Below the pieces are notes generated by a model. It had not been told where the DNA came from and ran no database searches. It was given only the letters and a program-made list of their open reading frames with translations. Position numbers and translations under genes: made by a program. From Patescibacteria group bacterium (GTDB lineage Bacteria > Patescibacteriota > Minisyncoccia > Moranbacterales > DUUL01), in assembly GCA_015493225.1 (NCBI GenBank), contig WGDO01000024.1, forward strand, positions 1 to 59,857: DNA of 59,857 nucleotides, read 5' to 3'. How positions within the stretch are numbered: the first letter of the stretch is position 1; every line of letters starts with the position of its first letter. Shown here piece by piece: positions 54,937 to 57,969 of this stretch.

Positions 54937-56262
54937 ATGGGACAGACAATAGCAGAAAAAATATTTGCAGCACATCTGCGTGACACACCAACCCCGGACA
55001 ACATGGTGATCGACATTGACGTCATCATGTGTCACGAAATCACCACGCCCATTGCTATTATGGATCTTGTGGATAAAGAGATGGACAGGGTGATTGATCC
55101 TGACAGGATTAAAGCGGTCATTGATCATGTGACCCCGTCCAAGGATTCCAAAACAGCCATGCAGGCTAAGATAATGCGTGACTGGGCCAGACGGCAGAAC
55201 ATCAAAGACTTTTTTGACATTGGCCAGAATGGTGTCTGTCACGCCCTATTTCCTGAAAAAGGATTCATTCGTCCAGGTAACACGGTCATCATGGGTGACT
55301 CACATACCTGTACCCACGGTGCCTTTGGGGCCTTTGCCGCCGGTGTCGGTACCACGGATCTTGAGGTGGGCATCCTCAAAGGAGTATGTGCCTTCCGCAA
55401 GCCTGAATCCATGAAAATCGAGGTCACGGGCGAGCTGCCGGTTGGCGTGTATGCCAAGGATATTATTCTCCATATCATCAAAACCCTCACTGTCAACGGC
55501 GCAACAGACATGGTCATGGAATTTTGCGGCCCGGTTGTCGAGGCAATGAACATGTCATCCCGGATGACGCTTTGCAATATGTCCGTTGAAGCAGGCGCGA
55601 CCTCAGGTCTCTGCCTGCCAGATAAGGTGACAGCAAAATATCTCTGGCAATTTATCCAGGACGATTACGCCTCAATGGAAGAAGCTGTCGAGGACTATAA
55701 AAAATGGCATTCTGATACTGATGCTCAATATGCCCAGACGTTGACCATTGATGTGACAGAACTTGTCCCCCAGGTTACCCATGGTTTTAAGCCGGATCAG
55801 GTGAAAGACATTACCGAGCTTGCCGGTAAGAGAATCGATCAAGTGTACATAGGTTCCTGCACGAATGGACGCATTGAGGATATCCGGGAAGCCGCCTCTG
55901 TCCTTAAGGGACGCAAGGTTGCAGACACGGTCCGGGGCATTTTAACTCCGGCAACACCAGGAATTTATTCCCAGGCACTTGACGAAGGCTTTATTAAAAT
56001 TTTTATGGATGCCGGGTTCTGCGTGCTTAATCCTACCTGCGGCGCATGTCTTGGTATGAGCAGTGGCGTACTGGCCGAAGGCGAGTCCTGTGCTTCCACG
56101 ACCAATAGAAATTTTAACGGACGAATGGGTAAAGGCGGCATGGTCCATCTTATGAGTCCGTTGTCTGCCGCGGCAGCTGCTGTAACCGGCGAGATTACCG
56201 ATCCACGTATGTTTCAAAGAATGAACAAAGGAATCTCATTCACAGAAGGAGGAGAATTATGA
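54937..56262 (+). CDS. leuC: 3-isopropylmalate dehydratase (or homoaconitase-type) large subunit
   Basis: MGQTIAEKIFAAH, CHEITTP, MGDSHTCTHGAFGAFA, GSCTNGR, NRNFNGRMG. Strong RBS aaaggaggt at 54921-54929. GC is markedly higher than the flanks. Confidence 0.92.
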   Translation: MGQTIAEKIFAAHLRDTPTPDNMVIDIDVIMCHEITTPIAIMDLVDKEMDRVIDPDRIKAVIDHVTPSKDSKTAMQAKIMRDWARRQNIKDFFDIGQNGVCHALFPEKGFIRPGNTVIMGDSHTCTHGAFGAFAAGVGTTDLEVGILKGVCAFRKPESMKIEVTGELPVGVYAKDIILHIIKTLTVNGATDMVMEFCGPVVEAMNMSSRMTLCNMSVEAGATSGLCLPDKVTAKYLWQFIQDDYASMEEAVEDYKKWHSDTDAQYAQTLTIDVTELVPQVTHGFKPDQVKDITELAGKRIDQVYIGSCTNGRIEDIREAASVLKGRKVADTVRGILTPATPGIYSQALDEGFIKIFMDAGFCVLNPTCGACLGMSSGVLAEGESCASTTNRNFNGRMGKGGMVHLMSPLSAAAAAVTGEITDPRMFQRMNKGISFTEGGEL

Positions 56263-56798
56263 AGAAATTTGGCGGACCGGCAATATTGCTGAACAGGAAT
56301 GATATAAATACTGACGAGATAATTCCTGCGAAATATCTCACAGAGATCACAAAAACGGCATTAAAACCCCACCTTCTTGAGGATCTGCTCGTTGACGGCA
56401 AAGCGTTTGACTCTCAAAGTGAAACCATGCAAAAGGCAAAGGTTGTAATAACCAGGGCTAATTTCGGATGCGGATCTTCACGGGAGCATGCCGTGTGGGC
56501 CTTTGAGGTTAATGATATTAACGTGGTCATTGCTGAGAGTTTTGCCCGAATCTTCCGACAAAACATGTTTAACTGCGGAATTCTTGCAATCGAGTTACCA
56601 AAGGAGCAGATTCAAGAAATCTTTGAGTTTGTTAAAAAAGCAAAGACTACTTGCGGGGTTATAGTGTATGACAGCCTAAAAGCTATTCGCATTACTGCCC
56701 CTAAAGACGGAATAACTTTTAAGTTTAATCTTAATGAGTATGACAGGAATCTGGTGAGTACTGGTGGCTGGCTTGCCTTTGCTGAAGTCAATTACTAG
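56259..56798 (+). CDS. leuD: 3-isopropylmalate dehydratase small subunit (short type)
   Basis: NTDEIIPAKYL, NFGCGSSREHAVWA. 4-nt overlap with leuC. Confidence 0.9.
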   Translation: MKKFGGPAILLNRNDINTDEIIPAKYLTEITKTALKPHLLEDLLVDGKAFDSQSETMQKAKVVITRANFGCGSSREHAVWAFEVNDINVVIAESFARIFRQNMFNCGILAIELPKEQIQEIFEFVKKAKTTCGVIVYDSLKAIRITAPKDGITFKFNLNEYDRNLVSTGGWLAFAEVNY

Positions 56799-56889
56799 AT
56801 GGAATAAAAACAGAGGCGCTTGGTAATTTCACTAGGCGCCTCAAGACTAATATTAAAAGCTTCATAAACGGAGCAAGGAGAATAAGGAA

Positions 56890-57969
56890 ATGAAAGTAGC
56901 TATTCTTGCCGGAGACGGCATTGGGCCTGAGGTCATGGCTGAGGCCATAAAAGTGTTGGATGTGGCGCAGGAGAAATTCGGGTTTTCCCTGGAATACGAA
57001 TCTGCCGATGTGGGCGGTATTGCCATTGACAACCATGGCCAGGCCTTGCCCCAGTCAACGCTTGCTGTGTGTGAATCAAGTGATGCTGTTTTATTTGGTT
57101 CTGTTGGTGGCCCCAAATGGGAAAGTCTGCCTCCGGCAGAACAGCCGGAACGGGCGGCCTTGTTGCCGCTGCGTAAGCATTTTGATTTGTTTTGCAATCT
57201 CCGTCCCGCAAGGATATTCCCGGCACTTAAAAGCGCTTGTCCACTTCGTTCTGATGTTGTGAGGGATGGCTTTGACATTCTTGTCGTGCGAGAGCTCACT
57301 TCTGGAATTTATTTTCCAACAGAGGAGGGAGACAAAGGTCGCTCAGGTGATGGTGCTGACGAGATGGCGTGGGACAGGATGTTGTACAAACGCTCTGAAA
57401 TAGAGCGCATTGCGCGTTCTGCTTTTGAGGCTGCAATGGTGCGCAGAAAAAAAGTCACATCTGTTGACAAGGCAAATGTTCTTACAACTATGGTACTTTG
57501 GCGTGAAGTTGTGAATGAAGTTGCTGCGGATTATCCTGAAGTGGCACTTGATCATATTTATGTGGATAACGCCACTATGCAACTTGTCCGCTGGCCGCAG
57601 CAGTTTGATGTTATGCTTTGTGGTAATATGTTTGGCGACATTGTTTCCGATGAGGCAGCCATGCTCACCGGCTCCATGGGTATGCTGGCATCGGCCAGCT
57701 TAAACAGTCAAAACTTTGGTATGTTTGAGCCTGCGGGAGGCTCTGCACCGGATATTGCAGGGCAGGGAATTGCCAATCCCATTGCTCAGATTTTGTCAGG
57801 AGCAATGATGCTTCGTTACAGCCTAGAACAGGAAGCCGCGGCGACTGCCATTGAAAATGCTGTTTCTCTTACCCTTGATAAAAGGCTGATGACCGCAGAT
57901 ATTGCAATTGACCCCACTAAGGCTATAAACACTATAGCCATGGGTGATGCAATAGTTTCGGCGCTGTAA
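56890..57969 (+). CDS. leuB: 3-isopropylmalate dehydrogenase
   Basis: [77 protein letters not shown]. Confidence 0.95.

Follow-up and report, generated by a model that had tools for sequence, protein, structure and literature searches.

The DNA analysed here (the window) is a stretch of 59,857 nucleotides (nt) from a Patescibacteria group bacterium, contig WGDO01000024.1 of assembly GCA_015493225.1, and at 54937-57969 it carries an island of three genes, leuC, leuD and leuB, which encode the two subunits of 3-isopropylmalate dehydratase and 3-isopropylmalate dehydrogenase. This leu island is probably a domesticated horizontal acquisition in the AT-rich chromosome of an ultra-small Candidate Phyla Radiation (CPR) bacterium, a composite leuCDB insert derived from Desulfobulbales in which leuC was later overwritten. 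The account draws on direct observations of base composition, gene identities, an empty site in a relative, a second assembly and the clade of the donors, on the separate positions of the genes in donor genomes, and on signs of mosaic divergence and of purifying selection.

The island has a G+C (GC) content of 0.478 and the rest of the window one of 0.333, which corresponds to z = 8.3 relative to non-overlapping windows of 3033 nt (mean 0.333, standard deviation (sd) 0.017, maximum 0.374). A first-pass annotation, made from the letters of the sequence, had put this contrast at about 50% versus about 34%, and the measured values of 47.8% and 33.3% bear it out. In 1-kb bins over 55001-58000 the GC content is 0.495, 0.447 and 0.486, and all other bins lie at 0.265-0.386. 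The described jump at the leuC start and fall after the leuB stop can be followed in 200-nt bins, in which GC climbs from about 54900-55000, where the leuC ATG (54937) lies, and has returned to 0.30-0.36 by about 100 nt past the leuB stop (57969). Tetranucleotide profiling, which had been proposed as a check, finds in the island the largest deviation of the window, with a distance to the rest of 0.052 compared with 0.010-0.029 for windows clear of it. GC at third codon positions (GC3) is 0.52, 0.43 and 0.44 in leuC, leuD and leuB, compared with 0.283 +/- 0.048 in 45 host open reading frames (ORFs; z = 3.1-5.0), and the GC skew, positive at 0.23-0.41 in neighbouring bins, drops to 0.03-0.15 within the island. 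Six antisense ORFs of at least 80 amino acids (aa) lie inside the island and none elsewhere in 50-59.8 kb, and a seventh (54756-55028) straddles the 5' edge. The first-pass annotation was thus right about the abundance of such shadow ORFs and slightly overstated their absence elsewhere, where two overlapping ORFs of at least 120 aa occur.

The insert as a whole measures 3452 nt (54722-58173); it begins directly after the aspS stop codon and ends directly before the scpA start codon. Its left flank, aspS (52925-54721, + strand; GC3 = 0.277), carries the Pfam tRNA-synt_2, GAD and anticodon OB domains, and its right flank consists of scpA (58174-58875, +) and scpB (58980-59546, +), which match Pfam SMC_ScpA and SMC_ScpB. 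The best genome matches of AspS are metagenome-assembled genomes (MAGs) of Patescibacteria, labelled Moranbacteria, Paceibacterota, Parcubacteria and Falkowbacteria, at 57-81% identity (66-81% for the top ones), and by these nearest relatives and its gene content the host is identified as a Patescibacterium. The genes outside the island all have host composition, the housekeeping genes having 27-39% GC. In the closest sequenced relative, locus L007 (AspS 81%, ScpA 71% and ScpB 68% identical; GC 0.345), the site is empty: AspS ends in GIKIMKK, and its TAA stop abuts the scpA start (ATG AGT TAT CAA). No LeuC, LeuD or LeuB was found around aspS in 80 related loci, for which DNA of up to 10 kb on each side was fetched.

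A second Patescibacteria-type copy, L006, is a 1503-bp contig from another metagenome (ERZ27262679) with 92.6% DNA identity to window positions 54856-56356. It reproduces the junction of the AT-rich upstream sequence with leuC as well as the leuC/leuD junction, and it encodes a LeuC of 441 aa too, with an identical C-terminal extension of 13 aa and the same leuC/leuD overlap. Its upstream 81 nt are 95% identical to the window, with both promoter hexamers and the ribosome-binding site (RBS) unchanged. The window and L006 are the only two Patescibacteria-type copies of the island in the databases searched; when further copies were sought in JGI metagenomes with LeuD, the best match was 73% and all loci were donor-type. 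An exact search with the LeuC and LeuB of the window itself gave no match. The claim of an insertion into host sequence, as opposed to a contig-end chimera, is upheld by the empty site in L007, the junctions of L006 and the Desulfobulbales affinity of the genes. The closest Desulfobulbaceae-type leuB (L088, 86% aa) comes from the same ENA sample as L006, ERZ27262679, so recipient-type and donor-type organisms co-occur there.

Linkage of aspS with scpA and scpB is widespread in Patescibacteria, with 0-7 kb of variable genes between them, always of host-like composition (for example in L009, L018, L021-L023 and L040). Genes may have been gained and lost repeatedly at the aspS-scpA junction.

All six gene calls of the first pass (LeuC, LeuD, LeuB, AspS, ScpA and ScpB) are matched by profiles. 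leuC (54937-56262, +) encodes a large subunit of 441 aa that matches NF001614 and Pfam Aconitase. The protein is of the short type, scoring 584.3 bits with NF001614 (cutoff 385), 494.7/385.7 with TIGR01343 and 435.1/410.15 with TIGR02086, and it falls below the equivalogs TIGR02083 (451/610) and TIGR00170 (365/560). The donor LeuC of locus L005 has the same subfamily score profile, including the two shortfalls (451/610 and 367/560), and since this housekeeping enzyme fails alike, the shortfall is a property of the Desulfobulbales type. The motifs GSCTNGR, CGACLG and STTNRNFNGR are present, comprising three Fe-S cysteines and a Ser/Arg motif, which we take from established knowledge of the aconitase family to hold the Fe-S cluster and to supply the catalytic Ser and Arg. 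LeuC also keeps 291 of the 293 columns that are at least 95% conserved among homologues. It is 96-98% identical to proteins P0002-P0005, which are encoded on Desulfobulbaceae-type contigs of 47-48% GC, 92% identical to 'Desulfobulbus sp.' and 88% to Ca. Electrothrix. The best 120 LeuC matches are all at least 82% identical, and those with names belong to Desulfobulbus, Desulfobulbaceae, Ca. Electrothrix/Electronema, Desulfolithobacter and one Desulfobacteraceae.

leuB (56890-57969, +) encodes a dehydrogenase of 359 aa that scores 499.3 bits with the TIGR00169 equivalog (cutoff 353.2), and the models for tartrate, isocitrate and homoisocitrate dehydrogenases are all under cutoff. The protein aligns end to end with solved 3-isopropylmalate dehydrogenase (IPMDH) structures (3vml_A, 510 bits, residues 2-358). 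As read in alignments it keeps the substrate, metal and catalytic motifs, whose roles we assume from what is established for IPMDH, and 205 of the 212 columns at least 95% conserved among homologues. Its best matches, at 83-86% aa identity, are Desulfobulbus sp. and Ca. Electrothrix, and compared with L088 the gene shows 83% DNA identity, 86% aa identity, a synonymous divergence (dS) of 0.64 and a ratio of nonsynonymous to synonymous divergence (dN/dS) of 0.155. LeuB also bears a lineage-specific insertion of 3 aa together with G143P/P145E in the YFG.PKG loop (57316-57330, residues 143-147). This change is absent from all 119 homologues, in which the GIYFG.PKG loop that follows the catalytic Tyr is otherwise near-invariant.

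leuD (56259-56798, +) encodes a small subunit of 179 aa that matches Pfam Aconitase_C (77/22.8) and is homologous to the solved LeuD structures 3q3w and 3h5j. It scores below the NCBIfam cutoffs (NF002458 141/167, TIGR00171 112/116, TIGR02087 82/109). Donor LeuDs (L005, L091, L092) are likewise sub-cutoff at 132-143/167, and decay of LeuD, considered in view of these scores, was ruled out on that basis. LeuD retains GCGSSREHA and AKYLTEITK and 92 of 94 strongly conserved columns, on a par with control homologues. Its best matches reach only 73% identity, and where a name is given it is Desulfocapsa or Desulfocapsaceae. The C-terminal third has 31-47% identity to all sequences compared, and it is hypervariable across native lineages as well (L091 and L092 differ with a nonsynonymous p-distance, pN, of 0.43), so that its divergence carries no information on origin. 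Replacement or degeneration of this third was ruled out by that native variability and by the retained conserved columns.

In the best 120 matches to each Leu gene, the named proteins carry a Desulfobulbales-type or a broader delta/proteobacterial MAG label and none is from a Patescibacterium. By match ranking and pairwise dS, used here in place of a formal tree, LeuC, LeuD and LeuB are placed within the Desulfobulbales (Desulfobulbaceae, Desulfocapsaceae). Members of this order are sulfate reducers, and it includes the cable bacteria. That the genes are instead native or anciently vertical, their high GC content being kept by amino-acid and codon selection, is an explanation of practically negligible probability, even granting that GC at first and second codon positions (GC1 and GC2) is intrinsically higher in leu enzymes than in average host genes. 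It is contradicted by the empty site in L007 and the lack of Leu genes near aspS in the 80 related loci, by the labels of the named best matches, by a GC3 3-5 sd over host genes and by a leuC segment (segment 2, below) that is 99% DNA-identical to a Desulfobulbaceae contig. A grouping of the Leu proteins with host relatives of similar GC contrast, the pattern that the first-pass annotation had associated with ancient selection, was not observed: the nearest relative has no such genes.

The three genes do not share one source. LeuC groups with lineage A, which comprises L001-L005 with one copy in GCA_026990725.1, at 95-97% protein identity compared with 73-84% for other lineages, and LeuD groups with lineage B. 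The N-terminal 113 aa of LeuD are 84-89% identical to lineage B loci (L092, L093, L101, L148) and 77% identical to lineage A LeuD, and the lineage B LeuC is only 77-79% identical to that of the window. The dS of leuD is saturated against every sequence compared, and its changes are AT-biased (23:6). These data point to an origin of leuD that is different from, and older than, that of the leuC body. On the contigs with the top LeuC matches, the leuCD pair is flanked by genes for IleRS, a PAS-GGDEF-EAL protein, MsrAB and an MFS transporter on one side and by DctPQM on the other. Throughout the donor genomes examined, the gene downstream of leuCD is dctP, in opposite orientation, and leuB belongs to a gidB...leuB-prs-asd arrangement; since leuCD and leuB are unlinked in these genomes, the operon of the window is composite.

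The end of leuC preserves part of this older history. Homology to lineage A ends at about 56207, within the conserved GEITDPR motif, and a 3' extension follows (56208-56262, +), in which the native stop is lost and the frame continues across the former leuC-leuD spacer as far as a TGA that overlaps the leuD ATG. Native LeuC proteins all stop 3-6 residues past DPR. In the window and in L006, the tail runs on after DPR as DPRMFQRMNKGISFTEGGEL to the stop, an extension of 13 aa; written from the motif it reads DPRMFQ RMNKGISFTEGGEL to the stop, and it resembles the lineage B tail, which ends after DPRKFL. The extension reflects a lost stop codon in an older leuCD pair with a lineage-B-like tail.

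Within leuC, divergences from sliding windows and Nei-Gojobori estimates resolve a mosaic, all segments being given on the + strand. The 5' segment (54937-54999) has a dS of 1.8 to L005, with 8 changes from strong to weak base pairs (S>W) versus 2 in the reverse direction (W>S), and a GC content of 0.476 compared with 0.571 in the donor. Segment 1 (55000-55290), read as an older layer that stems from lineage A, has 94.5% DNA identity to L005 and a dS of 0.28, again with AT-biased change (12:2). A divergent patch that is found in the window only (55291-55449) has a dS of 1.7-2.0 to L005 and L006 (1.73 to L005), and its closest match in any fetched locus is at most 85%. Segment 2 (55450-56207), read as a recent layer from lineage A, has a dS of 0.037 and 98.9% DNA identity to L005 over 55450-56180; there are 7 mismatches in 55444-56177 (about 735 nt), with identical runs of up to 243 nt. 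The clustering of mismatches between the window and L005 is highly significant (Fisher p = 9e-30). Two lineage-A donors differ by a dS of 0.15-0.23 in every leuC segment, which shows that the segments do not owe their divergences to mutational cold or hot spots. Over the leuC body, the patch region included, L006 and L005 share 97-100% identity, and L006 is A-like from just past the start codon, so that the boundary of its 5' tract differs from that of the window. Overall, tracts 94-99% identical to lineage A are set in older sequence, whose identity to any sampled donor is 75-85%. The AT-biased change in segment 1 (12:2), the 5' end (8:2) and leuD (23:6) fits residence in an AT-rich genome.

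The comparison of the two Patescibacteria copies orders these tracts in time. Derived sites shared by both copies occur only in the 5' third of leuC, at 54948, 54987 and, in segment 1, 55110, 55167 and 55269, and none occurs in 55291-56207 (5 in 354 nt versus 0 in 917 nt, p = 0.0016; Poisson 3e-5 for segment 2). In segment 2 the dS values are star-like, at 0.037 for the window and L005, 0.056 for L006 and L005, and 0.096 for the window and L006. Between the window and L006, dS is 0.32 in segment 1 and 0.57 at the 5' end, and the first 99 nt of leuD show 13 differences (about 13%), 12 of them at third positions. Segment 2 is younger than the split of the two Patescibacteria lineages, because its dS is far below that of adjacent sequence, and it therefore entered them separately or passed between them. 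From these patterns, at least two rounds of homologous or homology-facilitated recombination with lineage A DNA appear to have overwritten leuC since its first acquisition. The description of the island as a recently acquired block holds as far as its foreign origin is concerned; it is not one block, with dS running from 0.04 to saturation across the genes and leuC segments.

The divergent patch was considered as a remnant of an old resident allele. This idea is weakened by its composition, which is GC-richer than the donor allele (0.591 versus 0.553, with 17 W>S versus 11 S>W changes) and not AT-shifted. The patch is more likely to be a further import from another allele.

The same pattern might have arisen in a single transfer, from an unsampled Desulfobulbales donor that already carried a contiguous, mosaic leuC-leuD-leuB, with the uneven divergence reflecting recombination in the donor and patchy sampling. 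We regard this as quite unlikely. Donor sampling is incomplete, the nearest leuD and leuB sequences being only 73-86% identical, and recombination among Desulfobulbaceae alleles is plausible. Moreover, a LeuB homologue is present at two of the 80 metagenome loci retrieved with LeuD, in an adjacent position in L155 and some 4 kb further downstream in L159; these LeuBs are distant, however (64-66%), and in the close donors leuCD and leuB are all unlinked. A single transfer is also at odds with the differing tract structure of the window and L006, in which the patch is restricted to the window and the 5' boundary is shifted. Segment 2 bears no shared-derived sites and has a 3- to 5-fold lower synonymous divergence between the window and L006 than adjacent sequence, and at least one recombination event therefore took place after the Patescibacteria split.

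An assembly artefact would offer another explanation, in which reads from abundant Desulfobulbaceae were threaded into the contig, either as a chimera of the whole island or by bubble-merging within leuC. The runs of up to 243 identical bases between segment 2 and L005 speak for it, and ERZ27262679, the source of L006, also yielded a Desulfobulbaceae-type leuB contig. An assembly chimera is nevertheless very unlikely, because two different sequences, independently assembled, show identical junctions; L006 comes from another sample, is 7% different and has both junctions alike. A single contig holds host sequence on both sides of the island, the genes are precisely fitted with a host-type promoter, RBS and terminator, and the read-through of LeuC and the leuC/leuD overlap are found in no donor. 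No sampled donor closely matches leuD or leuB, and the Patescibacteria copies bear private substitutions that are AT-biased. A chimera would, in addition, have had to switch at least 4 times between sequences sharing about 80% identity where the switches occur.

Under the favoured account of a composite and repeatedly overwritten insert, the leuCD pair and leuB would have been acquired early, and a lineage-A allele would then have replaced the leuC body before the two Patescibacteria lineages split. DNA resembling L005 would later have re-converted the 3' two-thirds of leuC, and a further small import may have followed in the lineage of the window. The route could have been DNA uptake from a physically associated Desulfobulbaceae partner.

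Expression signals around the genes are of a kind suited to the host. The AT-rich upstream spacer (54722-54936, +), analysed by promoter and terminator scans and folding, has no counterpart in L007 and was created with the insertion. It contains the aspS terminator hairpin with its T-run (54757-54791), a predicted promoter (TTGAAA-16-AATAAT, 54857-54884) that is conserved in L006, and the RBS AGGAGGT (54923-54929) ahead of leuC; Shine-Dalgarno sequences precede each leu gene. The leuD RBS (GGAGGAG) sits in the old leuC-leuD spacer, which is now inside the leuC reading frame. No RNA leader, T-box or attenuator was found upstream of leuC at gathering score, and at E <= 1 the RNA-family scan gave only two sub-threshold chance matches, both away from this region. 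The leuD-leuB spacer contains the GC-rich hairpin that had been noticed on the first pass (56813-56842, +), with a 12-bp stem, no T-tail and a region energy of -27.3 kcal/mol (z = -6.5). Donor leuD genes commonly have a strong hairpin at the same relative position, which in lineage A has a T-tail, and the hairpin of the window may be a disarmed terminator remnant that permits read-through into leuB. The very strong terminator reported at the end of the island is confirmed as an intrinsic terminator (58034-58078, +) with a 16-pair stem, a 3-nt loop and then TTTTATTTTT; its arms (58036-58050 and 58052-58066) form a perfect 15-nt inverted repeat ahead of the T-run.

Two further repeats were noted near these signals. 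The RBS regions of leuD (56236-56263) and leuB (56862-56889) are 71% alike over 28 nt (...GGAGAAT.A..GAA), which suggests that a common host-type translation-initiation context was installed ahead of both genes. A perfect 14-nt inverted repeat (54821-54834, CTTTTAATATTAGT; 56846-56859, ACTAATATTAAAAG) encloses the promoter, leuC, leuD and the hairpin and leaves leuB outside. It could be a chance occurrence in AT-rich DNA (E ~0.02-0.04) or a trace of leuCD mobilisation.

The leu genes are intact and have dN/dS values of 0.03-0.16, which indicates that they are under purifying selection. Judged by their profiles and motifs, the enzymes are an ordinary 3-isopropylmalate isomerase (LeuCD) and dehydrogenase (LeuB), with a predicted chemistry that leads from a 2-alkylmalate through the 3-alkylmalate to a 2-oxoacid, CO2 and NADH. 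The substrate would be 2-isopropylmalate and possibly also citramalate, and JGI annotates the donor LeuCD as a 3-isopropylmalate/(R)-2-methylmalate dehydratase. The most likely role, as we infer it, would be to turn 2-isopropylmalate or citramalate from a partner into 2-oxoisocaproate or 2-oxobutyrate. Such 2-oxoacids might be transaminated to Leu or Ile, or oxidised by the Por/Vor-type 2-oxoacid:ferredoxin oxidoreductase (OFOR) encoded at 17562-23072.

The module could instead have been repurposed so that no leucine is made, serving either chain elongation of the homoaconitase/homoisocitrate type or the catabolic scavenging of hydroxy-acids into OFOR. In the catabolic version, 2-isopropylmalate, citramalate or D-malate would be converted to a 2-oxoacid and NADH, and OFOR would then give ferredoxin reduction and ATP. 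Repurposing seems rather improbable, and it has several observations in its favour: the window lacks leuA and ilv genes, amino-acid biosynthesis is generally lacking in Patescibacteria (PMC12455944), the four-subunit OFOR (17562-23072) is of the pyruvate/2-ketoisovalerate family, LeuB has the 3-aa insertion and G143P beside the catalytic Tyr, and the JGI annotation gives the donor LeuCD a dual specificity. The OFOR is, however, 32 kb away and a common Patescibacteria gene, so that its link to the island is circumstantial. The homoaconitase models HacA_Meth (414/550), h_aconitase (176/530) and HacB_Meth (73/230) and the homoisocitrate models AksF (247/500), AksF2 (257/540) and iso_homocit_dh (186/680) are all far under cutoff, while the LeuB equivalog is passed at 499 against 353. 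LeuC is 96-98% identical to the housekeeping enzyme of the donor, and the repeated replacement by donor alleles argues that donor-type specificity was selected. With LeuD also keeping 92 of 94 conserved columns, the homoaconitase/homoisocitrate role raised on the first pass is not borne out.

A broader interpretation is that the Patescibacterium is an episymbiont of lineage A, a relative of Desulfobulbus and the cable bacteria, and keeps taking up DNA from this partner, with the leu genes anchoring the refreshment of leuC and the pathway split between the two organisms through leaked intermediates. This is offered tentatively and is possible more than probable.

Several observations weigh against the favoured account, or limit what can be read from it. 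Support for the junctions comes from one independent contig of 1.5 kb (L006) and from the internal consistency of the window. No integrase, transposase or insertion-sequence (IS) element, or tRNA target was found at the island, nor do the junctions show target-site duplications, IS ends or flanking direct repeats beyond chance. A phage or plasmid carrier was not found either, as a scan of IMG/VR gave no relative, and BLAST against phages and plasmids gave only distant leuB matches (60-80%). The recombination history rests on two recipient and five donor sequences, and the GC-rich patch leaves the number and order of events uncertain. The search for the pathway genes leuA/cimA, ilvE and ilv covered the 60-kb window, and the pathway context, and with it the physiological role, is therefore putative. 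Finally, the two genomes nearest the window by AspS, L007 (CAZRER010000023.1) and L008 (CAYQVD010000003.1), were deposited as 'uncultured Bdellovibrionales', in conflict with all other relatives. Both have 33-35% GC, show a Patescibacteria-like aspS-scpAB synteny and group with Moranbacteria and Paceibacterota records. Because of their composition, synteny and other near matches the label is doubtful, and it is probably a taxonomic mislabel.

The remainder of the window encodes glyA, folD, mraZ/mraW, a penicillin-binding protein (PBP), a Mur ligase, ispG, an F-type ATP synthase operon, murG, prfA, infC, smpB, a transfer-messenger RNA (tmRNA), tRNAs and the four-subunit Por/Vor-type oxidoreductase. 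Among its 45 annotated ORFs there is no leuA, ilv or ilvE gene, as had been remarked for leuA and ilv on the first pass. The OFOR genes are split, with porC (17562-18143), porD (18244-18495) and porA (18726-19847) together and porB (22158-23072) apart. Between porA and porB lie three unrelated ORFs, namely a protein with Phage_30_3 and methyltransferase matches (19966-21147), an unknown ORF (21165-21581) and an ArsP-like permease fragment (21583-22107). The ATP synthase operon holds a DUF559/REase_MTES_1575 endonuclease-like gene (30791-31156) between atpA (29210-30700) and atpG (31278-32234).

Three other features of the window were noted. An 888-aa ORF with no Pfam match (36392-39058, - strand) lies in the lowest-GC stretch of the window (0.265-0.289), where the AT skew is strongly negative and the tetranucleotide deviation is second only to that of the leu island. 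At 42512-43500 (-), tRNA-Ile(GAT) and tRNA-Ala(TGC) lie about 610 nt apart and adjoin tRNA-Asp. These two tRNAs are the classic rRNA-spacer pair; no rRNA gene was detected anywhere in the window. The tmRNA (49977-50399, -) is predicted to encode a tag peptide that is unusually long, at 25 residues (ANLKTRVKTAFANLFAMPSFTAAVA).

Most environmental Patescibacteria have no known host, and their metabolic dependencies are likewise not established. The near-identical tract in leuC nominates a specific Desulfobulbaceae lineage as a candidate partner of an uncultured Patescibacterium, and it suggests that the flow of DNA from lineage A is ongoing and not a single ancient event. If the episymbiont interpretation is true, layered tracts of xenolog conversion could provide a general, sequence-only route to the hosts of uncultured CPR bacteria. 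If the proposed function is true, branched-chain 2-oxoacid metabolism would join the short list of biosynthetic and energy modules that CPR bacteria have regained by transfer. The locus is also a clean worked example of a foreign operon built from unlinked donor loci and given host regulatory signals. Annotators who meet a LeuCDB call in a CPR bin should check its junctions before they discard it as contamination.

Compared with the leu genes of Desulfobulbaceae and Desulfocapsaceae (Desulfobulbus, Ca. Electrothrix, Desulfocapsa), those of the window belong to the same families, with identities of 96-98% for LeuC, 83-86% for LeuB and 73% for LeuD. The short 'archaeal-type' LeuC (NF001614), the atypical sub-cutoff LeuD and the hairpin after leuD are shared with Desulfobulbales. 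Unlike their counterparts, the genes of the window lie in a 33% GC chromosome between aspS and scpA with AT-rich, host-like signals, leuB is joined downstream of leuCD, LeuC is 13 aa longer and overlaps leuD, and the nearest lineages of leuC and leuD differ.

Replacement of an acquired xenolog by homologous or homology-facilitated recombination is known in naturally transformable bacteria. The leuC mosaic resembles such conversion in its sharply bounded tracts of near-identity within diverged sequence, with boundaries at the start of the coding sequence and at the GEITDPR motif. It departs from the usual case in that donor and recipient belong to different phyla, and uptake by competence or pili and a RecA mechanism would have to be presumed; no competence genes were found in the window. 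A second parallel is provided by the pLeu plasmids of Buchnera (leuABCD), in which leucine genes likewise behave as a unit that is mobile or has been relocated, again in a symbiont with a reduced genome. The Buchnera genes include leuA, and leucine is overproduced there for the host. The module of the window differs in being chromosomal, in having no leuA in view and in consisting of xenologs from a likely partner organism. Buchnera plasmids are also the commonest of the weak plasmid matches (33 of 72 records), with a distant similarity of 60-80% over parts of leuB.

In literature searches, no leuCDB module was evident from titles and abstracts for Patescibacteria or CPR combined with leucine-pathway terms, and no association between CPR and cable bacteria was evident from titles and abstracts either. 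Horizontal gene transfer (HGT) into Patescibacteria has been described in an mSystems 2025 survey of groundwater MAGs (PMC12455944), in which Desulfobacterota are among the donors and natural competence is proposed. Most donor-recipient pairs in that survey are about 24% diverged, and amino-acid-biosynthesis genes are few among the transfers (PMC12455944). Like the islands reported there, the leu island is a foreign block in a streamlined CPR genome that is detected by composition and phylogeny. Unlike those transfers, it includes a tract only about 1% from its donor, its cargo is the leucine pathway, and one of its genes shows layered re-conversion. HGT of metabolic modules into CPR bacteria is thus known, and what is unusual in the leu island is the layered re-conversion by one donor lineage.

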